Shown here one piece after another: positions 31,032-58,831 of a stretch of DNA of 64,000 bases. Source of the DNA: an uncultured Candidatus Babeliaceae bacterium. Lineage in GTDB: Bacteria; Babelota; Babeliae; Babelales; Babelaceae. Position 1 is the stretch's first letter. Each line of letters starts with the position of its first letter. The notes beneath the pieces are model-generated. The model was not told the origin of the DNA. It ran no database searches and was given only the letters and a program-made list of their open reading frames with translations. A program made the translations under genes and the position numbers. Location of the stretch: assembly GCA_963704655.1 (NCBI GenBank), contig OY969927.1, forward strand, positions 896,001 to 960,000, written 5' to 3'.

Positions 31032-31916
31032 TTATTCTAACAAGCGTCTATATAAACCTTTTGTTTCTAATATTTCTTCGGAATACCTATCTTTTAGGTA
31101 TTTATTCCACAAATATGGATATGTTGCGTTTATCCATTCATCAATTTTCTTACGTTCTGCTGCAGAAAGTTTGTAAGAATGGAAAAGAATATCATTACCT
31201 TGTGATTGGCTGCCGCCATTATAATCGTAAACTTTTAAAGCCGTTTTCTTATGATATTCATATTGAAGCATAAAATCTTCTAAACCACTTAACGGATCTT
31301 TTAAAAATAAAAGAGCTTTGGTCATAACCTGCGCAGGGTCACTTATCATATCTTCATAATAGAGTAAAATCTTTTTATCTTCGGCCCATTCGTCATATAC
31401 CTTAAGGTCATCAAAATATATCTCAAAATTCTTGAATATATGTCCCGTTGATAAATTATCGACGTCTGGCTTTCCCACATGACGAATGATAGCCTCTTTT
31501 GGATTACGTATAACAAAAATTAAAAGATCTTGCTTTGGATTATATTTGAATTTTGAAAAATTCAGTTCTTTGCGATTATGCACTTTCCAAATGGGAGCTT
31601 TGGAAAAATTTAAAGAATGACCAACCATAAGGCCAATAGGCAAATTTGAAGGATTTGCAGTACTCCAAAAGTGGGCAGTTGGCCTTCCAGTAAGAACTTC
31701 TAGCCAATAACGTGACCAGGTATTACCCGACCTTGGGTATGATAAAAGATAGATTCTAGGGTTACTCGCTGCTATCATTTGCTGAATAACAGGTTTACTT
31801 TTAGTGCAAAATCCATACCCAACTGCAGCATCAAAAAAATCAATATCGCAAGATGATAAAATACTATTAAAAAAAAATAAATGCAGCAAAAGCATATTAC
31901 GAGTAAGTAATTTCAT
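31032..31916 (-). CDS. Sulfotransferase with signal-peptide-like leader
   Basis: SYPRSGNTW (5'-PSB), IRNPKE (3'-PB), YYEDMISDP. Confidence 0.85.
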   Translation of the reverse strand: MKLLTRNMLLLHLFFFNSILSSCDIDFFDAAVGYGFCTKSKPVIQQMIAASNPRIYLLSYPRSGNTWSRYWLEVLTGRPTAHFWSTANPSNLPIGLMVGHSLNFSKAPIWKVHNRKELNFSKFKYNPKQDLLIFVIRNPKEAIIRHVGKPDVDNLSTGHIFKNFEIYFDDLKVYDEWAEDKKILLYYEDMISDPAQVMTKALLFLKDPLSGLEDFMLQYEYHKKTALKVYDYNGGSQSQGNDILFHSYKLSAAERKKIDEWINATYPYLWNKYLKDRYSEEILETKGLYRRLLE

Positions 31917-32101
31917 ATACATCTCCCTAAAATATCCCACCCTAGAAATGCAGAAAATGCCTAATAATAGCCTATCGCCAATTTATTACAAAAAGCAATA
32001 TTTAATTCTTGAGCTTAAAAAATTCCATATCATAGCGCAGCTATAAAAGTCTTGATTATTTTGAAACAAAAAATATAAGTTAGCTCAGTATGAATATTCA
32101 A

Positions 32102-32153
32102 TACATTGTATTTGACGTTTTAGCGTAAAACAGAAACGGCATGTGACAAGCCC
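32102..32153 (-). promoter_or_regulatory. Promoter copy 2 (duplicated)
   Basis: Minus strand TTGTCA-N16-TACGCT; near-identical to 30924-30976. Confidence 0.6.
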
Positions 32154-32160
32154 AGGTGTA

Positions 32161-32198
32161 GCAGCCCTAAAATTAAATTCCTTAGGGCTGCCTTTTTT
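32161..32198. terminator. Intrinsic terminator-like hairpin
   Basis: GCAGCCCTAA...TTAGGGCTGC followed by a T-run. Confidence 0.65.
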
Positions 32199-32202
32199 AT
32201 TA

Positions 32203-33042
32203 TTAAGCTTTTTTAAGAACAACAAAGCTTACACAGCTGTTATAAACTTCTGGGCTATATAAAATGTTGGCATCTCTATTTTTTCTTTGATATAAAACTG
32301 CGCCTGTTTCTTCTGAATAGATAATTTTATTTTCATTATCAATAATTACGTTATCAACAGGTACAAAATATTCTTTTACAAGATTAAGAAAATCTACCAA
32401 ACAGAACGACAAAGGAGATTTTTGAATTAAACCGAGCTTAACAACAGATTGCTCTAAATCATTCCAGTTATTATGCGGTGTAACTGGTACGTTTTTGTCC
32501 CACTGTTCATCTAGCGTCAACACCAAAACGCCATCATCCTTAAGAACTCGACACGCCTCTTGAATTGATTTAATAAAGATTGGGTACGGTATATGCTCAA
32601 AGGTGCTGATGCAATAAGCTACATCAAACTCTTTGTCTGCAAATTCGAGTTTTGACATATCCATATGCATGACATCATAATTTTTGCCATGTATGACTTC
32701 TTTTTTTATTCTTCCATCTGCATCAATTGCAACATAATATGCTGGGTGCAATTTATCAACAACATGTTTATACCAGTTGTATTGTGATGGCAAACCTGCA
32801 CCTAAATCGATAACTTTTTTATCTTTAACCGTTACTACTTTACTCACCCAATAATATTCAAACGGCCTACTGCCCCAATTTCCCCATAAAATCCCCTGTA
32901 AAATTGGGTCTGATTTTTTTATTACGCCCAAATGCTTTTCTTCACGTTTATCTTTTAAATGTGCATTTGCTACTATTTCATTAAAACATGCTATCACTGC
33001 TAATAATTGAATCGCTACAAATAAATTTAATTTTTTAATCAT
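32203..33042 (-). CDS. Class I SAM methyltransferase with signal peptide
   Basis: VIDLGAG, FDVAYCISTFEH, RVLKDDG. Confidence 0.82.
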   Translation of the reverse strand: MIKKLNLFVAIQLLAVIACFNEIVANAHLKDKREEKHLGVIKKSDPILQGILWGNWGSRPFEYYWVSKVVTVKDKKVIDLGAGLPSQYNWYKHVVDKLHPAYYVAIDADGRIKKEVIHGKNYDVMHMDMSKLEFADKEFDVAYCISTFEHIPYPIFIKSIQEACRVLKDDGVLVLTLDEQWDKNVPVTPHNNWNDLEQSVVKLGLIQKSPLSFCLVDFLNLVKEYFVPVDNVIIDNENKIIYSEETGAVLYQRKNRDANILYSPEVYNSCVSFVVLKKA

Positions 33043-33255: not shown

Positions 33256-34128
33256 ATGAAAACAATAAAAAATATTTTTGTTCTATTTTTTTTAACGTTA
33301 TTGCAACTACTTGAAGGCGCATCTTTAAATTTGGTTGTTTTTTCTCGCAACAGACCATTACAACTGTACACTTTCTTAGAATCATTTCTTGTTAATACCA
33401 CAGGCTGCCAGAGAATAAATATCATTTATCGAGCAGATACACCAGAATTTAAATTAGGCTACCAAATTGTTCAGCAAGACTTCCCGCAGGTGAATTTTAT
33501 TAAACAAAGAGGCACAGCAGACTTTAAAGAGCTCACATTAAAAGCTATCGACTTTGATGAAGAGGATTTTATTATCTTTGCTGTTGACGACATTATCGTA
33601 ACGCGTAAAATCGATTTCGATGAAATTACAAAGCACTTAGAAACATTTGATTGTAATGGCTTTTATCTTCGCCTCGGGCAGCATATTACTGAATGCTATA
33701 GTGAACACAGAGTCACCGGTACCCCGCCACTCAAAGAGATTGTTCCGGGGGTATTGTGCTGGAACTTTAAAAATGGCACAGGTGATTGGGGCTACCCAAA
33801 TACTGTTGATATGACCGTTTATAGAAAAAAGGACCTTAAGAAAATCTTTGTCATGTTACCATTTACCAACCCAAATACGCTTGAAGGCAACTGGGCCGGA
33901 TTGGCATCAAAAAATCCATTAGGGCTTTGTTACAAAGAAGCAGCTGTTGTTAACTGCCCCCTTAATATTGTACAGAGCACTTTTAATAATCGGCACAGCA
34001 ATGAATGCACCCCTGAAGAACTTTTAGAACTCTTTTTAGACGGTTATAAAATGGATATTGGCCCATTACAAAATATCAAAAACAAAGCGCCGCATATGGA
34101 TTATAAACCGACATTTATAAAAAGATGA
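33256..34128 (+). CDS. Putative GT-A fold glycosyltransferase with signal peptide
   Basis: VFSRNRPLQL, FAVDD, NPNTLEG. Confidence 0.6.
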   Translation: MKTIKNIFVLFFLTLLQLLEGASLNLVVFSRNRPLQLYTFLESFLVNTTGCQRINIIYRADTPEFKLGYQIVQQDFPQVNFIKQRGTADFKELTLKAIDFDEEDFIIFAVDDIIVTRKIDFDEITKHLETFDCNGFYLRLGQHITECYSEHRVTGTPPLKEIVPGVLCWNFKNGTGDWGYPNTVDMTVYRKKDLKKIFVMLPFTNPNTLEGNWAGLASKNPLGLCYKEAAVVNCPLNIVQSTFNNRHSNECTPEELLELFLDGYKMDIGPLQNIKNKAPHMDYKPTFIKR

Positions 34129-34137
34129 GCAATAGCA

Positions 34138-34210: not shown

Positions 34211-34252
34211 CCGGTTGGATAGCACAAAGTTTAAGTTGAAAAAGAGAGAGTA

Positions 34253-35077
34253 ATGAAACAAAATTATATTTTAAGTTTTTTAGCACTTACTATCTTGAGC
34301 ATTCAAGCCGTTATTGAGTGGGAGATCGTTATACCAACATATAATAACCAAGAATGGTGCATTAAAAATATAGAGTCGGTCGTTAAACAAACCTACCCAT
34401 ACTGGCACGCAACTATTATTGTAGACTGTGCAACAGATAAAACAGAAGAATTACTACGTGAATTTGTAGCAATGTATCATCTTGAACATAAAATAACTAT
34501 CATCGTTAATAAAGAAAACCAAGGTGCCCTAGCAAATATTTACTACGCAGTAACAGCATGCGCACCACATAAAGTTGTCGGCCTTCTTGATGGTGACGAT
34601 TGGCTCGCAGACAATGAGGTTTTAGAGTATCTTTCTGAGATATATGAAAAGAAAAATATCTGGATGACATTTGGTCAATTTGAACTTTGGCCAGAAAACC
34701 GCATTGGTCACTGTCGCCCATATCAAAAAGACATTATAAAAGAAAATAAATTCAGACTGCTCAACGGCCTATTGCCTTCACACTTTAGAACATTTTATGC
34801 GTGGCTCTTCCAATTAATTAAAAAAGAAGATTTGCTCTACAAAGGTAAATTCTTTCCGGTAACTTGGGACCTTGCCATGATGTTCCCTATGATCGAAATG
34901 GCCGGCAAGCACCATAAATGCATATCTAAAGTACTTTATATCTACAACATACAAAACCCGTTAAATGATTTTAAAATTCATACCAAACTTCAAACAAAAC
35001 TTAATTACTTAATTCGTTCAAAAAAAAGATATCAACCACTTAAAGAAAAACCAATTTTCTCAAGGGAAAAGTCATGA
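34253..35077 (+). CDS. GT2 glycosyltransferase with signal peptide
   Basis: IVIPTYNN, LDGDD, SHFRTF, DLAMMFPMIE. Confidence 0.87.
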   Translation: MKQNYILSFLALTILSIQAVIEWEIVIPTYNNQEWCIKNIESVVKQTYPYWHATIIVDCATDKTEELLREFVAMYHLEHKITIIVNKENQGALANIYYAVTACAPHKVVGLLDGDDWLADNEVLEYLSEIYEKKNIWMTFGQFELWPENRIGHCRPYQKDIIKENKFRLLNGLLPSHFRTFYAWLFQLIKKEDLLYKGKFFPVTWDLAMMFPMIEMAGKHHKCISKVLYIYNIQNPLNDFKIHTKLQTKLNYLIRSKKRYQPLKEKPIFSREKS

Positions 35078-35916
35078 AGAAAATACTAAAGACTCTATTG
35101 CTCTTTCTCATTGCTTGTCCATTGGCATTAAGCAGTTTTACTGAATTTGAAATGGTTATTCCAACTTATAATAATGAACAATGGTGCATTAAAAACCTTG
35201 AGGCGTTAGTGCAGCAAACCTACCCCCATTGGCATGCAACTATTATTGTAGATTGCGCAACAGACCGTACCGCAGAACTTCTAACTGAGTATATTATCAA
35301 TAATAATTTACAAGACCAAGTTACCCTTATTATTAACACAGAAAGATGTGGTGCGCTTGCAAACATTTATTATGCAGCAAAGGCCTGTCCACCACATAAA
35401 GTAATTTGCCTATATGATGGCGATGATTTTCTGGCAGATGATGAAGTTTTAGCTTATTACGCAGATCTTTATGACACGCATGATATCTGGGTAACCTATG
35501 GGCAATTCCAATTATGGCCCAGTGGTGTTCATGGCTGGTGCTCCCCATATTCACAGTATGTCATTAAAAATAATCTCTTTAGACAAGTACAGGATATACC
35601 ATCACACTTTAGAACCTTTTATGCATGGCTCTTTCATAAAATAGACAAAGGAGACCTTCTTTATCATGGTGATTTTTATAAAATGACCTGGGATATGGCT
35701 ATTATGTTTCCGCTTATGGAAATGGCTGCAGAACGTCACTATTTTGTTTCTAGAATCACGTATCTCTATAATGAGTCAAATCCTTTAAACGATCACAAAG
35801 TCGATAAAAAGTTACAACAAAAGCTTGGCAAGATTATTAGATCTAAGCCTTACTATCAACGCCTTGATTATAAATATGTTCCAAACAAGGGCAAACAAAA
35901 AATGAAGCGAGGGTAA
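35074..35916 (+). CDS. GT2 glycosyltransferase with signal peptide
   Basis: Tandem paralog of 34253-35077; YDGDD, SHFRTF. Confidence 0.87.
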   Translation: MKKILKTLLLFLIACPLALSSFTEFEMVIPTYNNEQWCIKNLEALVQQTYPHWHATIIVDCATDRTAELLTEYIINNNLQDQVTLIINTERCGALANIYYAAKACPPHKVICLYDGDDFLADDEVLAYYADLYDTHDIWVTYGQFQLWPSGVHGWCSPYSQYVIKNNLFRQVQDIPSHFRTFYAWLFHKIDKGDLLYHGDFYKMTWDMAIMFPLMEMAAERHYFVSRITYLYNESNPLNDHKVDKKLQQKLGKIIRSKPYYQRLDYKYVPNKGKQKMKRG

Positions 35917-35922
35917 CCCATT

Positions 35923-36819
35923 ATGATCTACAAAACTGAATCACCTTTAATCACCACAACCGTGCACCCTGAGTGTCCGTCGCCGCTCGTGGTGAGCGAA
36001 GTCAAGACAGTGCGTTTCGCACCATCCATAGCGAAGACGGATGTATCGAAGGGCTGGTATGCGAATTTTTATCTCATACTATTTTTTATACTTGGCATTC
36101 AAAGCACCACTTTATCGGCTGCGCGTGTGGCATTATGCGCAGTAGCAACAGGGAGATACGATGTCTTTGCCGAACAACTTATAGAATCTGCACGACAATA
36201 TTTTTGTACCGAGCATGATGTGCATTATTTCATCTTTACCGATGGAACCATAACCCCAGCGCCAGATGTTACCACTGTTTTCCAAAAACGTCTTGGCTGG
36301 CCGCGTGACACGTTAATGCGTTTTTCAATTTACTTGCAGCACAAAGACCTTTTTGACTCATTTGATTACATTTACGCAACGGATGCAGACATGCTCTTTG
36401 TAGCGCCTGTTGATAGCGAAATTTTATCAGATTTGGTTGGAACTAAACACCCTGGTTATATAAAAAGGCGTGGCACCTATGAAGAAGGCAACAAACTATC
36501 AACAGCCTATGTTGCACGCCATGAAGGAAAATACTACTTTGCCGGCGGTTTTTATGGCGGTTCAAGAGAAAATTTCTTTAAGATGCTCCAGACACTGGTA
36601 GATAATATAGAAACAGATCTTCAAAAGAACTTTATAGCCGTCTGGCATGACGAAAGTCATATTAACCGCTATTTTATCGATAATCCACCAACAAAAATCT
36701 TATCTCCAGCCTACTGTTGTCCAGAAAACGTTAATCCAAACTACTATGACCCTGCAATTCTTCGCCTGAAAAAAAAGCTTATCGCACTGGACAAAAACCA
36801 TAGTGAATTAAGGAAATAA
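35923..36819 (+). CDS. GT6 (ABO/alpha-1,3-galactosyltransferase-like) glycosyltransferase
   Basis: ATGRY, YFIFTD, WPRDTLMRF, DADM (DxD), HPGY, YYFAGGFYGG, WHDESHINRY. Confidence 0.9.
   Translation: MIYKTESPLITTTVHPECPSPLVVSEVKTVRFAPSIAKTDVSKGWYANFYLILFFILGIQSTTLSAARVALCAVATGRYDVFAEQLIESARQYFCTEHDVHYFIFTDGTITPAPDVTTVFQKRLGWPRDTLMRFSIYLQHKDLFDSFDYIYATDADMLFVAPVDSEILSDLVGTKHPGYIKRRGTYEEGNKLSTAYVARHEGKYYFAGGFYGGSRENFFKMLQTLVDNIETDLQKNFIAVWHDESHINRYFIDNPPTKILSPAYCCPENVNPNYYDPAILRLKKKLIALDKNHSELRK
35960..36053. repeat. Nested composite repeat in the GT6 N-terminal coding region
   Basis: ccgtgcaccctgagtgt-ccgtcg-ccgctcgtggtgagcgaagtc...gcgaagacgga-tgtatcgaaggg. Confidence 0.8.
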
Positions 36820-36820: not shown

Positions 36821-37642
36821 ATGAAAAATATAACATTACCATCACTCTTATTTTTTACGCTTATTTTTTGTGCTGTTGCACCACTACAAGCCTACAAAAA
36901 ATTTGTCATACTCATTGCATCATATAATAATGAAAAATGGGCAGAAAAAAACATTGTTTCAGCTTTCCAAAACTACCCAGAAAACAATTACAGAATTATT
37001 TTTATTGATGATTGCTCAACAGATAGAACATTAAATGTAGTAGCCAAAACAGTAAAAAAACATAAAAAAGAACATTTAGTTACTATGATTCATAATGTCA
37101 AACGCCAAGGAGCTATGTATAACCACTGGTACGTTATTAATAACTATATTGCCGACGATGAAATTGTCATAATCCTAGATGGTGATGACCTCCTGGCAGG
37201 TGACGGCGTTTTAAAGTTCCTTGATGATATTTATACAAAAAATGATGTCTGGCTCACCTATGGCCAATTTAAACACATTTATAATAAAGATACGGGCTTT
37301 AATCGGGAAATGCCGGAACGTATTGTAAAAAATAACAGCTTCAGAGCATGGATACATGTTCCATCACATCTCAGAACTTTCTACGCAAAGCTTTATAAAA
37401 ATATAAAAATGGAAGACCTTATGCTTGACGGTCAATTTTTTGAAATGTGTGCTGATATGGCGACTATGATCCCCATGATAGAACAAGCCAGGGATCACTT
37501 TAAATTTATTTCAAAAATTTTGTATTTCTATAACGACAACAACCCAATAAGTGACCATAAAAAAAGCGTCGCGTTACAACAAAAGATCGACAAATATGTC
37601 AGAACATTACCCATATACCAACCATTAGAAAAGCTCTTTTAA
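36821..37642 (+). CDS. GT2 glycosyltransferase with signal peptide
   Basis: LIASYNN, IDDCSTD, LDGDD, SHLRTF. Confidence 0.87.
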   Translation: MKNITLPSLLFFTLIFCAVAPLQAYKKFVILIASYNNEKWAEKNIVSAFQNYPENNYRIIFIDDCSTDRTLNVVAKTVKKHKKEHLVTMIHNVKRQGAMYNHWYVINNYIADDEIVIILDGDDLLAGDGVLKFLDDIYTKNDVWLTYGQFKHIYNKDTGFNREMPERIVKNNSFRAWIHVPSHLRTFYAKLYKNIKMEDLMLDGQFFEMCADMATMIPMIEQARDHFKFISKILYFYNDNNPISDHKKSVALQQKIDKYVRTLPIYQPLEKLF

Positions 37643-37657: not shown

Positions 37658-38371
37658 ATGATAAAAAATTATTATATTCCATTATTACTATTCGGTTTTA
37701 ATACCCTCAACAGCACAACAATATACGATTTACTTAAAAAAAATACGCTCGTTTTTGATATAGGTGCCCATGTTGGAGATAAAACTAAAAAATATCAGGA
37801 AATGGGCTGTAAAGTTGTATGCTTTGAACCAAATCCAAAAAATACAAAAATATTGAAACGGCTATTTAATAAGAATCCTCAGATCTCGATTGAAGAAACT
37901 GCTTTGGGCAATACAACAGGAACAATCCAATTAAATATATGCTCTGATGCAGATACTATATCAACATGTAATGAAAAATGGATGACCGGAAGATTTAATA
38001 AATATAAATGGGATAAAATTATTAGCGTACCTTTAACAACATTGGATGTCATGATTAAAAAACATGGGATACCAGATTTTTGTAAAATCGACGTCGAAGG
38101 TTTTGAAATTTCAGTCCTAGAAGGTCTTTCACAACCTATAAAATGCCTATCCTTTGAATTCACAAAAGAATTTATGGATGATGCAGTAAAATGTCTTAAT
38201 TACCTAAGAAAAATTGGGTTTGGATCATTTAATATAGCTTGCGGGGAATGTCCTGATTTTATTTTTTCAACTAATACTGATGATTATACGATTATGAATT
38301 ATATAAAGAAATCAAAAGATAAACTCTTATGGGGCGATATTTATGCATTTTCTAATAATATCTTATCTTAA
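37658..38371 (+). CDS. FkbM family methyltransferase
   Basis: VFDIGAHVG, FEPNP, KIDVEGFE; hydrophobic leader. Confidence 0.88.
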   Translation: MIKNYYIPLLLFGFNTLNSTTIYDLLKKNTLVFDIGAHVGDKTKKYQEMGCKVVCFEPNPKNTKILKRLFNKNPQISIEETALGNTTGTIQLNICSDADTISTCNEKWMTGRFNKYKWDKIISVPLTTLDVMIKKHGIPDFCKIDVEGFEISVLEGLSQPIKCLSFEFTKEFMDDAVKCLNYLRKIGFGSFNIACGECPDFIFSTNTDDYTIMNYIKKSKDKLLWGDIYAFSNNILS

Positions 38372-38398: not shown

Positions 38399-39118
38399 AT
38401 GATTTTTTTATATTTATTTCTCTCTATTAACTTTTTATTTATCAATACTTCAGAATGCAAAATAATAAGTTTTAAAGAGCCCAGAAATGCTCTTAAAATT
38501 GTAAAAAGGTATCTTCCTGAAAATCCTATAATTTTGGAAGCAGGTTCTTTCGATGGAGAAGATACCCTCTACGTTGCAAAATTCTGGCCACAATCAACCA
38601 TTTATTCATTTGAACCAGTACCACAGATTTATAAAAAATTCTGCAGAAATACAAAAAATTGTTCACAAATTAAAGGATTTAATATAGCTCTTGGTGATTC
38701 ATGTGGTAAAAAATCTTTCTACGTTTCTTCAGATAAAAATTCACCACACATTCCGTCACAATCATCTTCATTATTACCACCAAAAGAACATTTAGATTAT
38801 GCGCCACATATTCAATTTAATAAAATCATTGAAGTTAATTGCTTCACGATTGATGCTTGGGCAGCAGAAAACAATATTAAAAACATCGATCTTATGTGGC
38901 TTGATATGCAAGGCAATGAACTCGAAACGCTGCAAGCTTCGCCAGAAATTTTAAAAACAGTTAAAGCTATAATTACCGAAGTAGAATTTGTTGAAGCATA
39001 TGAAGGTCAATCGCTCTATAGGGATGTTAAAGATTGGCTCGAAGCTCAAGGTTTTACCATGATCGCATTGAGCACAACAGCCGAATGGTTTGGCGATGCA
39101 ATATTTATCAGACTATAG
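38399..39118 (+). CDS. FkbM family O-methyltransferase
   Basis: LEAGSFDG, FEPVP, WLDMQGNEL, YEGQ, GDAIF; hydrophobic leader. Confidence 0.87.
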   Translation: MIFLYLFLSINFLFINTSECKIISFKEPRNALKIVKRYLPENPIILEAGSFDGEDTLYVAKFWPQSTIYSFEPVPQIYKKFCRNTKNCSQIKGFNIALGDSCGKKSFYVSSDKNSPHIPSQSSSLLPPKEHLDYAPHIQFNKIIEVNCFTIDAWAAENNIKNIDLMWLDMQGNELETLQASPEILKTVKAIITEVEFVEAYEGQSLYRDVKDWLEAQGFTMIALSTTAEWFGDAIFIRL

Positions 39119-39128
39119 GATTTTTAAC

Positions 39129-45305: not shown

Positions 45306-45329
45306 TATTGATATTTTTTGAGACAAACT

Positions 45330-47903: not shown

Positions 47904-47998
47904 GACAATTATACCCTTTCAAAATAACTTGACAATAAACAGTGCTATTCTATAGTAAAAAAAATTTGTTTTTTAATTTTAAAAACCTGAGTAGTTCA

Positions 47999-50430: not shown

Positions 50431-51315
50431 GTGCAAAAAAAGAGATATTTTTTATTGCTGCTATTTCATATAATTGCTTTTGGAAATAATGTAAAAATTA
50501 TTCCCAAGCCTATAAATGGCAGAAATATAATGAGGACGCTAGTTAAACACAAGCCACCAAGAATTTATCTTCTATCTTTTCCAAAATCAGGAAATACATG
50601 GATGCGCTATTGCATTGAGCTCCTTACAGAAAGACCTACAGCAAGCTTTTCATTGAAACCCGATGCCCAAGAGTTACCAATAAGCTATACTTTTGGGCAT
50701 AAGATAGACCTGTCAAAAAAGCCTATCTGGAAAGCGCATAGAGAGTCTGAATTTAATTTCGCAGGTTATAAGTATAGCCCCCGACGAGATTTATTAATTA
50801 TTGCAGTACGTAATCCTAAGGAAGCTATTGCTCGATGGATGACAACATCAAATGGGGCTGATTTATTATCATTCACAGGGCTTATGCATTTTCAATCTTA
50901 TTTTAATGTCCTTAGACTTTTTGATAGCTGGGCCCCAGACAAAAGAATTTTAATTTATTATGAGGATCTCATAAGCGATCCAAGAGAAACTCTTGAAAAA
51001 TTAGTTAATTTTTTAAATGATCCAAAAAATAAATTCGATGCCTTTTTTGATGAATATGAAAAACACAAAGAACGAGGGCTTAAGTTTTACGAATACAATG
51101 GGGGCAGCCAAAGCCAAGGGAACGACCTTCTTTATCATTCACGTAAAATGTCTGCCGTTGACCGTAAAAATATAGACCAATTTATTAAAGAAAAATATAA
51201 ATATTTATGGGAAAAATACCTTGAAAATAGATATTCAGAAGAAACCTTAGAAGAAAATAATTTTTATCGAGCACAAATTCTACATAACGTATACAGAAGT
51301 TTTATCCTTGATTGA
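50431..51315 (+). CDS. Sulfotransferase with signal peptide
   Basis: SFPKSGNTW, VRNPKE, YYEDLISDP; close paralog of 31032-31916. Confidence 0.85.
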   Translation: MQKKRYFLLLLFHIIAFGNNVKIIPKPINGRNIMRTLVKHKPPRIYLLSFPKSGNTWMRYCIELLTERPTASFSLKPDAQELPISYTFGHKIDLSKKPIWKAHRESEFNFAGYKYSPRRDLLIIAVRNPKEAIARWMTTSNGADLLSFTGLMHFQSYFNVLRLFDSWAPDKRILIYYEDLISDPRETLEKLVNFLNDPKNKFDAFFDEYEKHKERGLKFYEYNGGSQSQGNDLLYHSRKMSAVDRKNIDQFIKEKYKYLWEKYLENRYSEETLEENNFYRAQILHNVYRSFILD

Positions 51316-51332: not shown

Positions 51333-52355
51333 CTAAATTGAAATTCTACTTAGGCATTGAACTTCCTCTAAATATTCTCTATATCCAAGTATCAACTCTT
51401 TTAATTGGTTCCAAACCCTAGGATTAAAACTATTGATAAACTCAGGTATTGAAGATCCTTCTAAATAATCAAGAATCGTATTCTTTCTTTCATCCTTTAA
51501 TTCTTGAATATCGGCACCATTATCAAGAAGAATTCGAGCCTTTTCTAAAAGACCCAGATTGTTATACTCTAAGCTACCATACTTAACAATATCGTGCAGA
51601 GCTGTCCCATTAGAAGCCGTTTCATTGACATCATAATGAAGATCTTTAATAAAATAATGTAATAAAGCAGGCTCCTTGTTTACATCCAGAACAATATCAT
51701 GCAAATAAAGTCTTTGAGGGTTTAATTGAGCACCATGATCAACTAATAATTTTGCAAACTTTACCGTTTTAGCTGTATCCAAAACTAAATCACAAGATTC
51801 TCCAGAAAGAAAATATTTATTCGTATCTGCTTTACGACGTAAAAGAGCCTTTGCATAATCATAATGCTTTTGGTTAGTATTAGTTGAATCTTTTGCAGCA
51901 AATGCAAGGGGAAAAATATTTTGTATATTCATCACATTAACAAGATTAGGGTCTGCGCCAGCTTCAACAAGAGCCACAACCCAATATGGGTCTGCGGAAT
52001 CAAATGAAAAATTAGACCCCTTCTGTAGAAAGAGCCTTAATACATCATTTTTAATTTCTTGGTCTTTATCTCTGAGAGCCAACGGTATAACATGCATTAA
52101 TATGTTTTTTTCAAAAGTATCTATTCCTTCATTAGGAAGTAATTCTGCTGGGAAATCATCGATAATTTTTTGAGGATTATTATTTAAAGCTAAGTTAGAT
52201 GCAACGGACAGATTTTGTCTAAAAACATAATTTATTTGACCTAATTCACGCGAGAAGAGTATTTGCATGGAATTATTATTATTATCTCTAACGGAATTCA
52301 AGTCGAATATAAAGAAGAAAAACAAAAATAAGGCTGTAAGTTGGATTTTTATCAT
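51333..52355 (-). CDS. Secreted ankyrin-repeat protein
   Basis: LVEAGADPN, LLVDHGA, GTALHD, ILLDNGADI; signal peptide. Confidence 0.75.
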   Translation of the reverse strand: MIKIQLTALFLFFFFIFDLNSVRDNNNNSMQILFSRELGQINYVFRQNLSVASNLALNNNPQKIIDDFPAELLPNEGIDTFEKNILMHVIPLALRDKDQEIKNDVLRLFLQKGSNFSFDSADPYWVVALVEAGADPNLVNVMNIQNIFPLAFAAKDSTNTNQKHYDYAKALLRRKADTNKYFLSGESCDLVLDTAKTVKFAKLLVDHGAQLNPQRLYLHDIVLDVNKEPALLHYFIKDLHYDVNETASNGTALHDIVKYGSLEYNNLGLLEKARILLDNGADIQELKDERKNTILDYLEGSSIPEFINSFNPRVWNQLKELILGYREYLEEVQCLSRISI

Positions 52356-52467: not shown

Positions 52468-53214
52468 TTAAATTTTCAAAATAAAACATAAACTACCATA
52501 AAAATGTATAGATTTTATGTGCTTTTGATAATAATTAAGGTTATTTTTAATATGAGCTGAACATAGCTTTCTATCAGCATAACCAGTAGTTGCACCAATA
52601 AAATTTACATCATCAACCAATGATTGCAGGAATCGTATTGTTGATTTTTCACTCGCCACTGGGTTGCCAACTGAGCCTAAACCACCAAATGATTCCCAAT
52701 ATGATGTATGTAAATCTTCTATAATATAAATACCGCCACTTTTAACATAAGGAAAAAGCACCTTAAAGCTTGTAATTTGCTGGTTCATAGTATGCCCACC
52801 ATCATCAAGGATAACATCAAAACGCCCTCCTACATCTTGAATAAATTTTAGCAAATCAGCTTCTTCGGACTGATCACAGATATAAAAATTACATCGCGAT
52901 GAAAGACCTTGTGAATATTTTTTAAAAAAATCTTCTTCTTTATCTATAAAAAATAAAGTTGCATTCGGAAAATATTGATCCCACATTCTTGCCGACGCAC
53001 CAACAAAAAAACCGATTTCTAAAAATTTCAACGGCTTGTCTCTTAACTGAACAAAATAGGACTCATAAATAGATAAATAATCATGTGATGAAAATTTATC
53101 AGTTTGGCAGTCTTTACCAATTTCAGACAAGCTTTTAAGTGCAAATAGACCATCTTTAACCATGAAAATCTGAAAAAGTAAAATTGCCGTAAGTAATTTA
53201 TTTTTTACATACAT
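52468..53214 (-). CDS. Class I sugar O-methyltransferase (MycE-like) with signal peptide
   Basis: TDK, LEIG, DQS, LDDGGH, GGIYIIEDLHTSYW. Confidence 0.8.
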   Translation of the reverse strand: MYVKNKLLTAILLFQIFMVKDGLFALKSLSEIGKDCQTDKFSSHDYLSIYESYFVQLRDKPLKFLEIGFFVGASARMWDQYFPNATLFFIDKEEDFFKKYSQGLSSRCNFYICDQSEEADLLKFIQDVGGRFDVILDDGGHTMNQQITSFKVLFPYVKSGGIYIIEDLHTSYWESFGGLGSVGNPVASEKSTIRFLQSLVDDVNFIGATTGYADRKLCSAHIKNNLNYYQKHIKSIHFYGSLCFILKI

Positions 53215-53681
53215 TTCTAAAATCCTTTTATAAATAAACTTAATCTTTTTAAAAACCTTATAATTCTAAATAATATTACTCAACTCGGCTAATTATTTTT
53301 TAAAATTCAAAATACCTAGACCAGACTGGCAAATTTTATTCATTTACATGTGCCTTAAAAACTAGATATTTTACTGATTAAAAGATAATAACCAATAAAT
53401 ACCAATTCTTTATCATTTCTTTTTTTCCTAAAATTAATTGCTTCAATACAACACAGCCTTATATATAAAAAACTTTTCATTACTTTGTCAAATTAACCAA
53501 TATAAACTATCAAAAAAAATACCAACCCAATAAATTGGAAATAGCACAATTCCTGGAGCAACAGGAATCACAATTCATTAATTCTTTGACTATTCTTTTA
53601 AACTTTTTTATAACTCTATTAAATCACATTATCTACACATCCAATTTTAATCAAATATTAATAATATTTTTAAGGAGCCCC

Positions 53682-54581
53682 ATGAAAAATATCTATTCCA
53701 TACTACTAAGCATTATCATACTTAATGAAATTAGTGCAAAAGTATTATTAATAACTCACAGCTATAATCGCCCGGACTTTATAGAACTCAATGCCCACTT
53801 ATTTAAAACCTTCCTGCAAGATGATTATGAATACGTTGTCTTTAACGATGCACATCAACAAAATATGAAAGAACAGATAGAACAAACCTGTAAAAAACTT
53901 GGTATTCGCTGTTTTAGGGTGCATCAAAATTTACACAATAGGCCAAATAATTCACCCGGCCATAGGCACATAGACTGCATTCAATACTCGCTTGAAAAAC
54001 TCGGTTATGATTTTGACGGAATTGTCGCCTTTGTTGATTCTGATATGTTTTTAATTAAACCATTTAGTATAGAAAAATATCTACAAGGATATGATCTTGC
54101 CGGCGACCTTGAAGGCCGCTCCAATGAACGAATAAGAATACGATACTTATCGCCTAATTTAACATTTATGGACATGCGTACATTGCCCAATAAAAGAACT
54201 ATTTCATTTGAAGGCGGCATGGTAGAGGGTCTAGCCTGTGACGTTGGCGGACATACGTACTATTATCTCAAAAGCAATCCCGGAATCAAAAGCAAATTCT
54301 TTGGACATATACATATGGGGGCAATGAAAGTTGCCGATGGCTGTAAAAAATGCACTAACTTAGATTGCCCATCATGCTTAAAAAAATTACAACAAATTGG
54401 GCTTGATGAAGAAATCATTAAATTTGTTCATGATATACCAGAAGATAAAGATGTTGAATTCTTTCTTGATCATCACTTTCTACACTATAGAAGTGGCTCT
54501 AATTGGAACGGAAAACCGGCAGAATACCACCAAAGAAAAACACGTACATTAAGTACATTAATTAGTGATATAAGTAAATAA
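53682..54581 (+). CDS. Putative GT-A-like secreted protein (paralog 3 of 3)
   Basis: AAGGAG RBS before ATG 53682; NRPDFIE, DSDMF, DVGG, FLHYRSGSNW. Confidence 0.65.
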   Translation: MKNIYSILLSIIILNEISAKVLLITHSYNRPDFIELNAHLFKTFLQDDYEYVVFNDAHQQNMKEQIEQTCKKLGIRCFRVHQNLHNRPNNSPGHRHIDCIQYSLEKLGYDFDGIVAFVDSDMFLIKPFSIEKYLQGYDLAGDLEGRSNERIRIRYLSPNLTFMDMRTLPNKRTISFEGGMVEGLACDVGGHTYYYLKSNPGIKSKFFGHIHMGAMKVADGCKKCTNLDCPSCLKKLQQIGLDEEIIKFVHDIPEDKDVEFFLDHHFLHYRSGSNWNGKPAEYHQRKTRTLSTLISDISK

Positions 54582-55387: not shown

Positions 55388-55391
55388 ACAT

Positions 55392-55561: not shown

Positions 55562-55580
55562 CCAACAAAATCAAAATTAA

Positions 55581-56702
55581 TTATGAAAAATTTTCTTGCC
55601 TCGTGCCGCTCAGCAATTTTAAATCCTCACTCACCATAATTTTTACTAATTCCTGAAATGTCGTCGAAGATTTCCACCCCAAAGCCTTTCTGGCTTTAGT
55701 TGAATCGCCTAAAACATAGTCTACTTCTGATGGACGAAAATATTGAGGGTCAATTTTAACTAAAGTTGCCCCAGTTGCTTGATCAAAGCCAACTTCATCT
55801 GTACCCGTGCCCTGCCAGCATATTGTAATACCAACTTCTTTAAAAGCTAACTCAACAAATTCTCTAACAGTGTGCGCTTGCCCGGTGGCAATAACATAAT
55901 CGTCGGCTGTATCTTACTGAAGTATGGACCACATAGCTTCAACATAGTCTCTTGCATAGCCCCAATCGCGCTTTGCATCAAGATTACCTAGATAAAGGGT
56001 CTCGCCGATTCCTAGCTTATATCTTGCAACAGCCAAAGAAATTTTTCGTGTTACAAAAGTTTCTCCGCGCAAAGGTGATTCGTGGTTAAATAAAATACCA
56101 CTACAAGCAAAGTGGCCGTAAGCTTCTCTATAATTTACCGTAATACAATGGGCATATAACTTGGCGACACCATAAGGTGAGCGTGGATAAAAGGGGGTGT
56201 TTTCCGTTTGGGGTGTTTCTCGAACCTTGCCAAACATTTCACTAGAAGAGGCCTGGTAAAATCTAATTTTTTTCTTTGCATCAGTGACATGTATCGCTTC
56301 CAATATCCGCAAGGTACCTAAAGCATTAATATCTGCAGTCTGTTCAGGGGTATCAAAAGATACTCTCACATGGCTTTGCGCAGCTAAATTATAGATCTCA
56401 TCAGGATCAATTTGCTGGATAAGACCAATAATACTGCCCAAGTCGGCCAAGTCACCGTCATGCAAAAAGAAATTATTAAAATTAACAGATTTTTTTAATA
56501 AAAAATTAAGTCTTTTAGTGGTTGATGCTGAAGAAGCACGCTTAACGCCATGAACTTCGTACCCTTTTTCAAGTAAAAAATCTGCAAGATATGCACCATC
56601 TTGCCCTGTAACACCAAAAATAAGAGCCTTTTTCTGGTAAGCAGAATTATAAACAGGTAATAATAAAAATACAAACCCTATAACTAATAGTCTTTTCATC
56701 AA
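55581..56702 (-). pseudogene. gmd: Second GDP-mannose 4,6-dehydratase with signal peptide and an internal TAA
   Basis: [23 protein letters not shown] at 55914-55916, after which the same frame continues DTADDYVIATG...YFRPSEV...ENFS* to 55581. Confidence 0.88.
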
Positions 56703-56757
56703 TTATACTCTTCCATTTTTACTCTATAGTTTCTGTTATTTAAAATAATTTTTTACT

Positions 56758-57753
56758 TTAAACAATGTCACTCAAAAGGTTTAATAAAACTTCGACTCTA
56801 TTTAAATAAGTATGTTTATTTTTAACAAAATCCATTAGATTCAGGAGCTCTTGCAACTCCAGCTCATTCACTTTTTTAAGGCCGTCATAAAAAAGCTGTT
56901 TAGTGTCTGGATTGTACACAATTTTTTGCTCAAACAAATTATAAACTGTTTCGGAATTGGTTATACCAAACTGCCCATAACTAATATTTTTAAAAATTCT
57001 ACACGGTATATAGCCTTCATCAAATTGCCATTTACCCACAATAGTTGGCGCAAGAACTGAATTGAAAATTAATTTCTGGTTTTCTTCTGGCGAGATATGC
57101 ATAAGATGCGAAAACTTCATACCATTTTTTTGACATGCGCGTTTAAATGGCTCAATTTGTTCAACATTGCCATGAAATCCGCCACCTAATGTTCCTATCC
57201 AATAAACGGTATTATCTTTAGATTTACCCCAATTTTTGATAACTTTTTCTTCCATTGCATCAATTTGATAGGGCAGTAAATCTGTTGCCCATGGCATATA
57301 GACAATTTTTCCTGATTTTGATGTATATATACATTCATCAATTTTTTGGATATCGTCATGCTGACCCTTGCATCTATTGGTATACACCTGAAAGACGATA
57401 GCATGGCCGGCGTCTAAAAGAGATTTATATTTTGCCATGGGGCAGTTATGCAATAAATAATAGCTTGAGGCAACAATCGGCATTTTTTTATCTGCCTGAC
57501 CTTCTGTTAAGAACAAACAGTTTTCAAAGTCAAAACCACGAACATCGTCATTATTGTCAAACCAATAGGTTTCGTAACCCATACTTTTAAAGGCTTTATA
57601 AAAAGCGTCATGTATATATGAATGAGTATGACTGTGGAGCTTGTGACCCCATATAACTACTTTTTTGAAATTAAGCGCCGCATGCGCATCGAGTTGGAAT
57701 AATGATAAAAATAGCATCAAAGAAAAAAAATAAAATTTAAAAAATTGCTTCAT
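56758..57753 (-). CDS. Putative GT-B (CgeB-like) glycosyltransferase with signal peptide
   Basis: HSHTHSYIH, PWATDLLP, GYIPCRIFKNISYG, HTYLNR. Confidence 0.6.
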   Translation of the reverse strand: MKQFFKFYFFSLMLFLSLFQLDAHAALNFKKVVIWGHKLHSHTHSYIHDAFYKAFKSMGYETYWFDNNDDVRGFDFENCLFLTEGQADKKMPIVASSYYLLHNCPMAKYKSLLDAGHAIVFQVYTNRCKGQHDDIQKIDECIYTSKSGKIVYMPWATDLLPYQIDAMEEKVIKNWGKSKDNTVYWIGTLGGGFHGNVEQIEPFKRACQKNGMKFSHLMHISPEENQKLIFNSVLAPTIVGKWQFDEGYIPCRIFKNISYGQFGITNSETVYNLFEQKIVYNPDTKQLFYDGLKKVNELELQELLNLMDFVKNKHTYLNRVEVLLNLLSDIV

Positions 57754-57790
57754 AACTACTTTCCTTTTATATTAAAGATAATTTCACTTT

Positions 57791-57921
57791 ACAAACGCTT
57801 CCGTCGTCGCTCTTCGAGCTATGCCGAGACACGATCATTTAATTAACAACGTAACTAAGCTCACAGAAAGTCCTTAACAAACGCGTCCCTCTTCGCCCAA
57901 GGGCTTCGTCGGACATGATCA
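57791..57921. repeat. Two tandem stand-alone family C repeats
   Basis: acaaacgc-ttccgtcgtcgctcttcgagctatgccgagacac-gatca (57791-57837) and acaaacgc-gtccctcttcgcccaagggcttcgtcggacat-gatca (57877-57921). Confidence 0.75.
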
Positions 57922-57943
57922 AGAATAAACAAAGTAACTAAAC

Positions 57944-58831
57944 TCATCGCAACTCCTTAATAAACGCGTCGTCGGAAAGCCAACTACCAGCCCAAAGATG
58001 ATTCGCATACGCCTCTGGGCGCATCCACACACTCTTGTCTTTAACCTTTTCATGATAACCCATAGGGTATAAATATGATGCTGGTAACGCTATAACTTTA
58101 TCATGGCACAGAGGCGCCAAATGATAAAATAAAATAGTAAAAAAGAATGGCCCAGTACGTAAAACAACAGCCTCTGCAATTTTTTGTTTTTCACTTATTC
58201 TTTGAATAGCCTCTAATAATAAAGGGTGGCCCGGCCGAGCCCCAAAAAGCCCTAACCCTATCTGCACATGACCCGTATCTAAAGGCTGAATGCCCATATA
58301 AAAATCATAAGATTTATGCAAATCATCAAGTGGTCTATAACATTCGTAATCTGGCACATCTATATAAACACCACCACAGCGATAAATTATCTCATACTTT
58401 GCAATATCTGAACGCTCGCCATAATTAATTGCATAATCATACATAGCTCTATTGGTAAGACCAAATTCATCGATCTCTTTTTCTGTCCAAAGTTTATATT
58501 CCCAATCTGGATGATTTTTCAGCCATGTATCACGCAAGGCAACGTACTTTTCTGGAAACGGAGACCCCAGCCAAATTTGATGAATAATTTTAGGAATTTT
58601 ATAAGGTGCACCAGCTGGAACTTTTGATACATAATTTTTGTTATATAATTTTTTTAACATATCATAAATATCTTTATGCGCAGTGTCCTGATCGAAAATA
58701 TCTGGGTATTCATTCAAGCGCATGGAAACATCAAAATCAACTTTTTTATTACTACGACTCAAAACATATGTAGTAGCTAAACAGGCAAAAAATGCACCGC
58801 CTATAAGTAAATAAACATTATTTATCTTCAC
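57944..58831 (-). CDS. GT32 (OCH1-like) glycosyltransferase
   Basis: IPKIIHQIWLG, RSDIAKYEIIY..GGVYID, TGP, HLWAGSW; N-terminal hydrophobic anchor. Confidence 0.85.
   Translation of the reverse strand: MKINNVYLLIGGAFFACLATTYVLSRSNKKVDFDVSMRLNEYPDIFDQDTAHKDIYDMLKKLYNKNYVSKVPAGAPYKIPKIIHQIWLGSPFPEKYVALRDTWLKNHPDWEYKLWTEKEIDEFGLTNRAMYDYAINYGERSDIAKYEIIYRCGGVYIDVPDYECYRPLDDLHKSYDFYMGIQPLDTGHVQIGLGLFGARPGHPLLLEAIQRISEKQKIAEAVVLRTGPFFFTILFYHLAPLCHDKVIALPASYLYPMGYHEKVKDKSVWMRPEAYANHLWAGSWLSDDAFIKELR

Follow-up and report, generated by a model that had tools for sequence, protein, structure and literature searches.

Why would a bacterium place export leaders in front of enzymes that need NAD(P)H, SAM, PAPS or nucleotide sugars? 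The question is raised by a gene cluster in a 64,000-nucleotide stretch of DNA (the window), part of a 1.3 Mb genome (G000, 96% complete) of Babelota (Dependentiae/TM6). This is a phylum of intracellular protist parasites (PMC6561590), in keeping with the protist host assumed in an earlier, sequence-only reading. That reading had proposed a duplicated, export-tagged pathway acting in a host compartment, a view that our analysis bears out for the leaders, their conservation and the outside origin of the donors, but not for the duplication, the need for a host compartment or an ER/Golgi site. The interpretation we favour, with a probability of roughly one half, is a predicted Sec-exported glycosylation pathway in a host-fed compartment, probably making the parasite's own surface glycan. 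That compartment may be the periplasm or, if type II secretion takes the enzymes further, the vacuole or the cytosol of the host; export, the site of action and the acceptor are all predicted. The features are listed with the support for each in brackets.

27409..28380 (+), GT2 of the conventional module, no leader (PF00535 6.6e-18; N-terminus is the first strand)
28166..29569 (-), Wzx-like flippase (PF01943 1.2e-10; 7 predicted TM segments)
29583..30914 (-), polyprenyl-phosphate-sugar synthase-like GT2 (AglJ/DPMS-like), no leader (PF00535; best NCBIfam AglJ 4.9e-24, under cut-off)
31032..31940 (-), sulfotransferase, leader, likely start at codon 7 (PF00685 8e-6)
32203..33042 (-), SAM methyltransferase, leader (PF08241 9.4e-11)
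33256..34128 (+), leader protein, from its sequence a probable glycosyltransferase (acidic pair D89 D90 invariant in 13 sequences; leader in 11/13 homologues; no Pfam, NCBIfam or PDB match)
34253..35077 (+), GT2, leader (PF00535 7.1e-19; family in 64/121 phylum genomes, leader in 29/33 scored copies)
35074..35916 (+), GT2, leader (PF00535 1.6e-14)
35923..36819 (+), GT6, displaced leader (PF03414 1.1e-40)
36821..37642 (+), GT2, leader (PF00535 5.7e-15)
37658..38371 (+), FkbM-type methyltransferase, weak leader, h10 1.7 (PF05050 1.5e-18)
38399..39118 (+), FkbM-type methyltransferase, leader (PF05050 1.1e-21)
39090..40163 (+), leader protein, start at codon 14 (leader in 8/9 homologues; no Pfam or NCBIfam match)
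40201..41328 (+), Methyltransf_24/CmcI-like O-methyltransferase, leader (PF13578 1.2e-11, PF04989)
41377..42270 (+), unclassified GT-A family copy 1, leader (alignment with paralogues; fold from a paralogue's model)
42275..43183 (+), unclassified GT-A family copy 2, leader, invariant DxD (model pLDDT 92.9)
43222..44169 (+), NRS/ER, leader (PDB 4QQR 2.7e-109, 7JID 7.1e-65)
44184..45305 (+), NDP-glucose 4,6-dehydratase (RmlB/UGD-like), leader (TIGR01181 306 bits, cut-off 365; PDB matches; leader in 10/11 homologues)
45318..46289 (+), leader protein (leader only; no Pfam or NCBIfam match)
46307..46969 (+), small GT-A/nucleotidyltransferase-fold protein, leader (model pLDDT 90.2; leader in 14/14 homologues)
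47031..47903 (-), GT-D-like protein, leader (Atlas 0.95)
47942..49219 (+), RXYLT1/GT47-like protein, atypical leader with an unusually long n-region (PF24785 3.1e-9; PF03016 weak)
49228..50334 (+), leader protein (leader only; no Pfam or NCBIfam match)
50431..51315 (+), sulfotransferase, leader (PF00685 1.4e-9)
51333..52355 (-), ankyrin-repeat protein, leader, probably outside the pathway (PF00023)
52468..53214 (-), Methyltransf_24, leader (PF13578 5.4e-7; leader in 6/6 homologues)
53535..54581 (+), unclassified GT-A family copy 3 (likely start 53682, with leader)
55581..56702 (-), Gmd, leader, interrupted (in-frame TAA at 55916-55914 in the assembly, then 110 further Gmd codons)
56758..57753 (-), probable GT-B glycosyltransferase, leader (Atlas 0.98; PF13524 on 12% of one cluster)
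57944..58831 (-), GT32, leader or N-terminal anchor (PF04488 3.3e-10)
58834..59817 (-), Fcl-like GDP-fucose synthase, no leader (PF01370; Fcl label from motif and gene context)
59814..61046 (-), Gmd, no leader (PF16363 2e-155)
61030..62094 (-), ManC, no leader (PF00483, PF22640)
63166..64000 (+), GT-C (PMT-like) membrane glycosyltransferase, 496 aa, extending beyond the window (PF02366 28.5 bits, cut-off 22.7)

The cluster holds about 15 glycosyltransferases (assigned or probable), five methyltransferases, two sulfotransferases, and a dehydratase with NRS/ER, the 3,5-epimerase/4-reductase of eukaryote-type NDP-rhamnose synthesis; nearly all are tagged. Pfam bore out the five SAM methyltransferases, two sulfotransferases, three GT2 proteins, GT6 and GT32, and the flanking manC, gmd, fcl and GT2 genes (27409, 29583) indeed lack leaders. 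The GT-D assignment of the sequence-only reading was backed by the Atlas, through clusters with GT-D families on 11-16% of their members, but not by Pfam (no match at E 0.01); a PDB sequence match was not found either. Foldseek gave nothing but GT-A transferases as top matches of the 42275 model (lowest E 2.1e-6, TM about 0.45), while the 46307 model matched GlmU-type and GT2-type chains equally well (best Z 13.5, rmsd 3.2 over 178 residues). The GT-C gene at 63166 had been overlooked; among the 39 genomes that possess a GT-C, 27 carry it within 26 kb of a gmd.

Leaders were called with our own hydrophobicity and charge heuristic, plus inspection, on the cluster ORFs of at least 150 aa starting between 31032 and 57944 (n = 28). 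The leaders quoted earlier were found where they had been placed, and the statement that nearly every enzyme is tagged held: 25 ORFs (24 glycan-type or unassigned proteins and the ankyrin protein) open with a basic n-region and a stretch of uncharged residues, 17 long at the median, and 22 of them have a small-residue cleavage-type site. Two more have a displaced or atypical leader (35923, 47942), and the third, ORF 54685-55182, has none. This density is not peculiar to the cluster, but a trait of about half of the soluble proteome: genome-wide, 458 of 858 soluble ORFs pass the heuristic at their first start, and a looser setting gave 24 of 29 in the cluster (the 29 include fcl) versus 535 of 831 elsewhere in the genome. 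In charge, length and hydrophobicity, cluster leaders are like those on 14 textbook proteins of this genome that are exported or host-acting. They look cleavable rather than anchor-like, with a hydrophobicity of 1.63 against 2.55 for membrane helices.

Most leader ATGs are preceded by a purine-rich, ribosome-binding-like stretch. Past the h-region, the next in-frame ATG, GTG or TTG falls at residue 160 in NRS/ER, 80 in Gmd, 51 in the dehydratase, and 74 and 89 in two GT2 proteins, in each case inside the catalytic domain. A start soon after the leader is possible at 33256, 35074, 41377, 42275, 52468 and 57944.

Tagged versions of nucleotide-sugar enzymes and of glycosyl-, methyl- and sulfotransferases are found repeatedly in Babelota; of 151 chlamydial genomes, 5 have them as well. 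A leader is present in 104 of the 118 top NRS/ER homologues, in 105 of the 118 Met-starting top matches of the 42275 GT-A family (602 homologues), and in 32 of 34 GT6 homologues (family in 29 of 121 genomes). In all three families the leader type is conserved and its sequence diverged. Most homologues from outside lack a leader, and in a tree the tagged NRS/ER rows form one clade (support 95) amid untagged homologues, supporting the view that leaders are additions. Relatives also tag the enzymes that make donors: PAPS synthase in 5 of 5 and MetK in 6 of 8 relatives that have them and, beside gmd, ManC in 6 of 21 and Fcl in 6 of 19, with both ManC and a Gmd-Fcl fusion tagged in G011. These patterns are part of the case for export of the pathway.

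The donors seem to come largely from beyond the bacterium's own synthesis: neither MetK (SAM) nor APS kinase (PAPS) was detectable in this 96% complete genome. Its GalU-like and ManC enzymes are untagged, so some donors could be self-made. The premise that cofactors could not be available in the periplasm is weak, since the genome encodes two TLC nucleotide transporters, whose host nucleotides would have to cross it; a host compartment is thus not required. Nothing here supports an ER/Golgi lumen. Nor is the pathway duplicated: Gmd alone has an untagged counterpart, and its tagged copy is interrupted; NRS/ER and the transferases lack a cytoplasmic twin in the locus. The genome encodes SecD, SecF, YidC, LepB, two secretins and two T2SS-family ATPases; TatC, DsbB and LpxC were not found in it. 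Other tagged enzymes that require ATP or NADPH include adenylate kinase, thioredoxin reductase and FMN reductases. The presence of tagged ubiquitin hydrolase and ankyrin proteins implies a way for tagged proteins into the host cytosol.

Three other explanations have to be weighed. The tags might be a side effect of AT-rich DNA, or of a drift throughout the lineage towards appended leaders, in a partly decaying cluster. An open 25-codon AT-rich extension scores as a leader 12% of the time, about half of the proteome is tagged, the tagged Gmd is interrupted, and in GT6 a repeat in frame with the gene (about 20 further matches in the genome) moves the hydrophobic stretch back to around residue 48. 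However, a leaderless gene acquired a spurious upstream leader in only 0.5% of 5000 simulations with the genome's own AT-rich intergenic DNA, the heuristic was positive at just 57 of 2936 internal methionines, 88-94% of homologues in the three families keep the leader at 40-80% identity, and catalytic motifs are conserved; to judge from this conservation, drift is largely refuted and very improbable. It is also unlikely, if less so, that the leaders are inner-membrane tethers with cytoplasmic catalytic domains, or are inefficient or bypassed by a second start, in which case SAM and PAPS would be imported to supply a surface-glycan pathway of the usual cytoplasmic kind. Mosaic operons (tagged ManC adjoining untagged Gmd and Fcl in G023 and G091) would fit, as would tagged GlmU, found in 5 of 21 scored genomes including this one; GlmU is needed in the cytoplasm, and most genomes have a single copy. 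Behind the leaders of GlmU, Fcl and MetK the ancestral start methionine is often retained, so the cell may make an untagged form too. Two EamA-family transporters are putative SAM importers, and residues behind some leaders are slightly basic (median +1 vs 0 for controls). Against this, a basic n-region favours an N-in, C-out topology, the h-regions are short and weak for anchors, and NRS/ER, the dehydratase, Gmd, two GT2 proteins and, by inspection, five tagged PAPS synthases have no inner start. Moreover, among 261 tagged representatives scanned, the inspected tRNA-, ribosome- and gyrase-related cases were artefacts of start choice or a hydrophobic first strand.

Alternatively, export is real and the targets are the host's: released by type II secretion or in vesicles, the enzymes would alter glycans and glycoproteins of the host, the membrane of the vacuole or the pools of nucleotide sugars. 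[quoted passage not shown] Chlamydia secretes enzymes of glycogen metabolism that draw on UDP-glucose of the host (PMC4829429). Among the proteins of this genome are a ubiquitin hydrolase with a tag and a member of the histone-deacetylase family. NRS/ER is eukaryotic in type, and the tagged GT2 family does not track GT-C (co-present in 22 of 64 genomes, base rate 39 of 121). Yet a variable 25-gene cluster inside an envelope-glycan locus better suits a self-made polymer, known glycosyltransferase effectors are single enzymes, and Pfam detected no host-targeting domains on the cluster enzymes, leaving host targets possible but doubtful. Surface-glycan loci typically vary in content and copy number; both differ strongly among these genomes, and cluster genes are often flanked by flippase/DPMS-like GT2 and manC-gmd-fcl-GT-C, which favours the parasite's own surface.

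Within the preferred reading, export with activity outside the cytoplasm is predicted with good confidence; granted that, the own surface is the somewhat favoured target. The leaders would be real Sec signal peptides, and the enzymes would be exported unfolded, with Sec and LepB as the machinery and type II secretion perhaps following as a second step. Beyond the inner membrane they would fold, bind cofactors and run a soluble nucleotide-sugar glycosylation, using UDP-sugars, NAD(P)H, SAM and PAPS that may come from the protist host, either across the outer membrane into the periplasm or on the vacuole or cytosol side. The product, the weakest step, may be a rhamnose-containing, methylated and sulfated glycan on the parasite surface or on secreted proteins, and would substitute for LPS. 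Counting against this reading are the mosaic operons (in this genome, a tagged Gmd but an Fcl in untagged form only), tagged GlmU, retained methionines, interrupted Gmd, the independence of tagged GT2 from GT-C, three chlamydial loci with the dehydratase-NRS/ER pair but no matching transferase alongside, and possibly self-made donors.

In Wzx-dependent/GT-C envelope loci, nucleotide-sugar enzymes and GT-A/GT-B transferases are cytoplasmic, and outer steps use lipid-linked donors. The present locus shares their flippase, polyprenyl-phosphate-sugar synthase-like GT2, manC-gmd-fcl and GT-C, but its soluble enzymes are export-tagged and occur independently of GT-C. In Chlamydia trachomatis, normally cytosolic carbohydrate enzymes are exported and use a host nucleotide sugar outside the cytoplasm to make luminal glycogen (PMC4829429), as we infer here for the cluster. 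As described there, that system relies on type III secretion and yields a storage glucan, whereas the Babelota cluster has Sec-type leaders on about 25 enzymes and adds NAD(P)H-dependent sugar interconversion, methylation and sulfation, with tagged SAM and PAPS synthesis in relatives. A similar parts list occurs in amoeba parasites: Megavirinae clusters encode a pair of enzymes for UDP-rhamnose (R141, L780), numerous glycosyltransferases, methyl- and sulfotransferases, and a SAT/APS kinase, and the role proposed for them is glycosylation of the fibrils on the virus particle itself (PMC10117803). The 7JID chain aligns with NRS/ER from residue 6, and "signal peptide" occurs 0 times in the main text of that paper. 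The viral products arise within the host cell, whereas export of its enzymes seems to give the bacterium access to the same donors.

A signal-peptide-rich proteome is common to this genome and published Babelota (PMC6561590, PMC4378268, PMC4776705), with signal peptides predicted on 44% of Chromulinavorax proteins (PMC6561590) and two gspD copies in all TM6 genomes. Ankyrins, proteases and nucleases are what these papers treat, and "glycosyl" occurs 0, 1 (a DNA glycosylase) and 0 times, respectively. No description of an exported glycan pathway of this kind was found in the literature searched. Leaders as such are already published for the phylum; what surprises is the types of enzyme that carry them. 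Normally cytoplasmic enzymes tagged for export suggest that a protist-dwelling bacterium builds glycans outside its own cytoplasm with host metabolites.

Twenty-five of the 28 open reading frames (ORFs) of at least 150 aa between 31.0 and 58.8 kb start with a Sec-type N-terminal leader; in two more the leader is displaced or atypical, and the last ORF lacks one. The sequence-only reading had given leaders to nearly all enzymes of this cluster, which holds for the 25 tagged ORFs. Of the enzyme classes that it named, Pfam recovered two sulfotransferases, five methyltransferases, a GT6, a GT32, and one RXYLT1/GT47-like protein, along with three GT2 and three NAD(P)-dependent sugar enzymes. The feature is real and conserved, and we put the probability that these enzymes are exported and work outside the cytoplasm at about 0.8.

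Leaders were called with a home-made hydrophobicity and charge heuristic, run with controls. It was falsely positive at 57 of 2936 internal methionines, and simulated AT-rich upstream DNA gave a false leader in 0.5% of genes, yet 12% of open 25-codon extensions passed. The 25 cluster leaders had the same median n-region charge (+2) as 14 exported controls from the same genome and an uncharged run of 17 (versus 16 in the controls), and 22 carried a cleavage-type site of small residues. With a basic n-region, a short h-region, and small residues at the cleavage site, they look like Sec/signal peptidase I leaders. Those of the 3,5-epimerase/4-reductase (NRS/ER; 43222, ORFs being named by start coordinate) were well below membrane helices in hydrophobicity (1.63 versus 2.55). 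A true start downstream of the leader, which had been named as a possible refutation, was found nowhere before the catalytic fold of NRS/ER, the tagged Gmd (55581), the RmlB/UGD-like dehydratase (44184), or two GT2 enzymes, as their next possible start falls within the catalytic domain; about six other ORFs lie outside this result. The twin-arginine motif was absent from all 25 leaders and TatC was not found in this genome (G000, 96% complete), and by these two features the cluster enzymes do not appear to be Tat substrates.

A run of tagged genes is in itself unremarkable in G000, a single contig of 1,298,077 bases with 38% GC, because 458 of its 858 soluble ORFs carry a tag at the first start, a share that agrees with the 44% given for Chromulinavorax in the accessible part of the literature. 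Leader enrichment in the cluster was dropped as the main argument because of this high background, and it is the identity of the enzymes that needs explaining. Apparent leaders judged to be upstream extensions or hydrophobic first strands were discarded; the proteins concerned are MnmA, GluRS, G6PD, a gyrase fragment, an amine oxidase, a MiaA-type IPPT, and a member of the saccharopine dehydrogenase family. Several other features were observed in passing:

19138-21153 (-): two tandem tagged AAA-ATPase-like ORFs (P-loop motif recognized by eye)
21251-24048 (+): a tagged protein of 827 aa with a 101-aa ORF behind it, which we take to resemble the arrangement of a polymorphic toxin with its immunity protein
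54685-55408 (-): within the cluster, a pair of short leaderless ORFs that overlap and may be a single broken gene
35960-36050, 58885-58940, 59840-59880, 63708-63745: copies of a dispersed palindromic repeat family (10-45 further genome matches per query) that lie in frame within coding genes, in the leader region of GT6, at the 3' ends of fcl and gmd, and in a GT-C loop
L017 (a separate locus), 3119-8760: a 1342-aa ORF that, with its neighbors, presumably resembles a Cas12a locus (N-terminal sequence)

Alignment, structure model, and structural comparison gave a three-copy family (41377, 42275, and 53535) a GT-A fold and an invariant DxD motif. The family was assigned to none in CAZy or Pfam; by modeled fold and motif, its members are GT-A glycosyltransferases. 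A GT-A/nucleotidyltransferase fold was also modeled for 46307, and the locus supplies at least two unclassified GT-A-fold families. Leads from the Atlas suggest that 47031 is GT-D-like and 56758 probably GT-B; the Atlas look-alikes of these two proteins lie mostly in viral clusters, which according to the Atlas does not indicate gene transfer. No function could be assigned to 33256, 39090, 45318, and 49228 by the searches run. PDB sequence searches with the 42275 alignment, the 33256 alignment, and 47031 returned nothing useful, and NCBIfam gave an assignment to 0 of 13 previously unassigned or weakly assigned cluster proteins.

NRS/ER matched the solved NRS/ER 4QQR over its full length (2.7e-109, versus 4.6e-6 for RmlD), as in eukaryote-type rhamnose synthesis. 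Its nearest solved structures were 4QQR and 7JID, which we take to be the Arabidopsis and Mimivirus enzymes, respectively. The substrate is presumably UDP-4-keto-6-deoxyglucose, the UDP specificity being suggested by the PF00483 proteins of G000, which comprise only ManC and a GalU-like protein and none of RmlA type. The tagged Gmd contains an in-frame TAA at 55916-55914, which was not bridged by near-identical contig sequence from sequencing runs and may be either a real stop or an assembly error. Among the sequencing runs listed, none covered half the stretch and none was an RNA run.

Among 121 genomes of the phylum, NRS/ER occurs in 20, GT6 in 29, the tagged-type GT2 in 64, and Gmd in 56. 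Conservation across related genomes, proposed earlier as a check, bore out the leaders: they are kept in 19 of 21 NRS/ER loci (of the remaining two, one is cut by a contig end and the other lacks its start), 32 of 34 for GT6, 29 of 33 for GT2, and 105 of 118 for the 42275 family, as well as in 104 of 118 Met-starting top database homologs of NRS/ER. For Gmd, 57 of 69 matches were scorable, of which 24 were tagged by rule, 6 more by eye, and 27 untagged. A quick, poorly resolved Gmd tree needed at least 5 label changes (versus 19.2 when shuffled), 2 of which strong branches make unavoidable; the tag has therefore been gained or lost repeatedly. Big tagged clusters with shifting gene content were found at L001-L003, L005, L011, and L012 and around genomes G011, G035, G050, G059, G085, and G093; these include tagged UDP-glucose dehydrogenase-like and PseB-like enzymes (by N-terminal motif only).

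Outside the Babelota and chlamydial lineages, leaders were mostly absent, which speaks against the objection that they might be equally common in outside homologs. Of 149 distant NRS/ER representatives, 115 aligned over the domain. By rule, 5 carried a tag, with one more borderline; 66 were bare, 15 otherwise extended, and 29 fused. None of the 6 scorable Patescibacteria-type or other-titled loci had a leader. The closest named relatives of the G000 enzyme were Vermiphilus pyriformis and Candidatus Dependentiae records, which places G000 in Babelota. In the Chlamydiae phylum, that of record L007, 5 of 151 genomes have NRS/ER, each tagged (one weakly) with a tagged dehydratase adjoining, and G216 carries a large, full tagged cluster at L265; the loci with both tagged genes are L262-L264, L007, and L265. 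A FastTree phylogeny of 22 loci and 60 of the 115 distant representatives, from which the rule-positive row P0335 was left out, placed 21 tagged rows inside one 23-row clade (support 95). Babelota and chlamydial rows are interleaved within it, which suggests that the two exchanged tagged NRS/ER.

The strongest argument for a cofactor-holding compartment outside the cytoplasm is that donor-making enzymes are tagged as well. MetK was detected in 7 of 121 genomes and tagged in 6, an eighth in G124 being untagged; APS kinase was found in 5 of 121, always within a tagged protein, some 560 aa long, whose N-terminus is sulfurylase-like. Beside gmd, ManC is tagged in 6 of 21 cases and Fcl in 6 of 19, and in G011 the entire ManC-Gmd-Fcl path is tagged; there, a tagged Gmd-Fcl fusion adjoins the tagged ManC (L266, 3369-5597). 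As enzymes for PAPS, SAM, and GDP-sugar donors are tagged too, the tags reach upstream to ATP- and GTP-using steps, and a compartment outside the cytoplasm would hold these cofactors. G000 itself has no detectable MetK or APS kinase, despite the 5 methyltransferases and 2 sulfotransferases of its cluster, and MetK was in none of the 20 genomes with NRS/ER. A Pfam scan of the tagged proteins of G000 (261 of 427 representatives) revealed further cytosol-type enzymes with convincing leaders, including two FMN reductases, a ubiquitin hydrolase, a deacetylase, and the following:

Tagged cytosol-type enzymes of G000 (locus, coordinates)
L147, 8237-8950: adenylate kinase (a second copy exists)
L052, 11964-12950: thioredoxin reductase (three copies)
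L043, 12609-13490: spermidine synthase
L044, 13688-14227: SAM decarboxylase
L049, 13807-14280: RidA
L146, 8796-10640: ribonucleotide reductase domain protein

A tagged mitochondrial-carrier-family protein (L056, 10840-11679) is a candidate for carrying nucleotides or cofactors through a bacterial or host membrane.

Three observations speak against export. In genomes G023 and G091, ManC is tagged but Gmd and Fcl are not; 5 of 21 scored genomes have a tagged GlmU, even though the gene is usually single-copy; and these recently tagged enzymes often retain an inner methionine. Because of these, export must assume either that translation can begin at two starts or that nucleotide sugars are transported across the inner membrane. 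In the tagged GlmU proteins (L124, 4100-5614; L227, L229, L230, and L244), the old methionine usually lies behind the leader, and dual starts are possible.

Components of an export route are present. A scan of 46 membrane proteins found SecD, SecF, YidC, Lgt, a prepilin peptidase, two TLC nucleotide transporters, and two EamA proteins, and G000 also encodes LepB, two secretins, two PF00437 T2SS-family ATPases, and DsbD; DsbB and LpxC were not found in it. As the Sec route is present and TatC was not found, the enzymes would be exported unfolded, with cofactors loaded outside. The secretins, ATPases, and prepilin peptidase amount to T2SS machinery, which may partly serve type IV pili; we know of no sequence signal for type II secretion across the outer membrane. 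With DsbB not found and DsbD present, the periplasm may not be oxidizing. The premise that cofactors are not supplied in the periplasm is weak here: from the two TLC transporters we infer that TLC-dependent cells pass host nucleotides through their own periplasm, which would make it a viable site.

What the exported enzymes build is less certain. The cluster is flanked by a flippase and a lipid-sugar-synthase-like GT2 on one side and by manC-gmd-fcl, then a GT-C (63166), on the other; G050, G059, and G093 show the cluster in this position as well, and in 27 of the 39 genomes carrying the GT-C, it is no more than 26 kb from a gmd. Based on this locus, its variability, and the missing LPS genes, as reported for TM6 genomes in the accessible text of PMC4776705, we favor a glycan of the parasite's own surface, at roughly even odds. 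The GT-C itself was rejected as anchor of the exported pathway, since the tagged GT2 family is no commoner with GT-C than without (22 of 64, against a base rate of 39 of 121), and this lowers the own-envelope reading. The locus therefore comprises two modules, the first conventional and lipid-linked, the second tagged and frequently, though not invariably, lodged within the first. Targets in the host are likely enough for the tagged enzymes. Babelota (Dependentiae/TM6) are protist-infecting intracellular parasites (accessible portions of PMC6561590 and PMC12172432); from the sources as available, Chromulinavorax replicates in the host cytoplasm and Babela in a vacuole. Two further proteins were observed outside the locus. 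L144, 10330-12531, encodes a membrane protein of 734 aa whose C-terminal TPR repeats give it a layout that we assume to resemble TMTC-type GT-C enzymes, but its N-terminal 400 aa had no Pfam match at E 0.01; L134, 14320-15360, holds another PF00953 protein, which resembles WecA most (below cut-off) and is possibly an initiating transferase.

Among known systems, a Wzx/GT-C envelope glycan locus shares the flippase, lipid-sugar synthase, and GT-C, but its nucleotide-sugar enzymes and soluble transferases are untagged and cytoplasmic, whereas here 25 of 28 ORFs are tagged. The cluster is alike in logic to the chlamydial luminal glycogen pathway without being a member: its leaders are of Sec type rather than type III secretion signals, and no glycogen families are among its Pfam matches. 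It is alike in parts to giant-virus glycosylation clusters, again without being a member. No account of tagged glycan enzymes in Babelota was found in the accessible portions of PMC4776705, PMC12172432, PMC11495043, PMC10117803, PMC4829429, or bioRxiv 10.64898/2026.04.11.717937, nor in those of PMC4378268 and PMC6561590, whose supplements with signal-peptide tables could list some; subscription papers fell outside the search. The tagged cluster is thus apparently undescribed so far; the sequence-only reading had called it the best candidate here for an undescribed system.

More tentatively, and with somewhat less than even confidence, we propose that Babelota and some environmental chlamydiae have used Sec leaders to relocate a whole layer of their cytosolic metabolism beyond the inner membrane, running a soluble, Golgi-like glycosylation line outside. 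This layer would comprise the synthesis of nucleotide sugars, SAM, and PAPS, together with adenylate kinase, thioredoxin reductase, and polyamine enzymes, and the line would run in a non-oxidizing periplasm or a peri-bacterial space containing ATP, NAD(P)H, and sugar nucleotides from the host. Such a line would overturn the rule that lipid-linked donors are required for bacterial glycosylation outside the cytoplasm. As the cultured species Vermiphilus pyriformis carries a tagged cluster (L003), export is directly testable. To our knowledge, textbooks have no soluble nucleotide-sugar, SAM, and PAPS chemistry outside the bacterial cytoplasm; if export is confirmed, Babelota would have it phylum-wide. 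Part of their unexplained signal-peptide-rich proteome would gain a testable function, with a possible answer to what covers their LPS-poor cells, and a parallel would emerge to the giant viruses of the same hosts, which glycosylate their particles.
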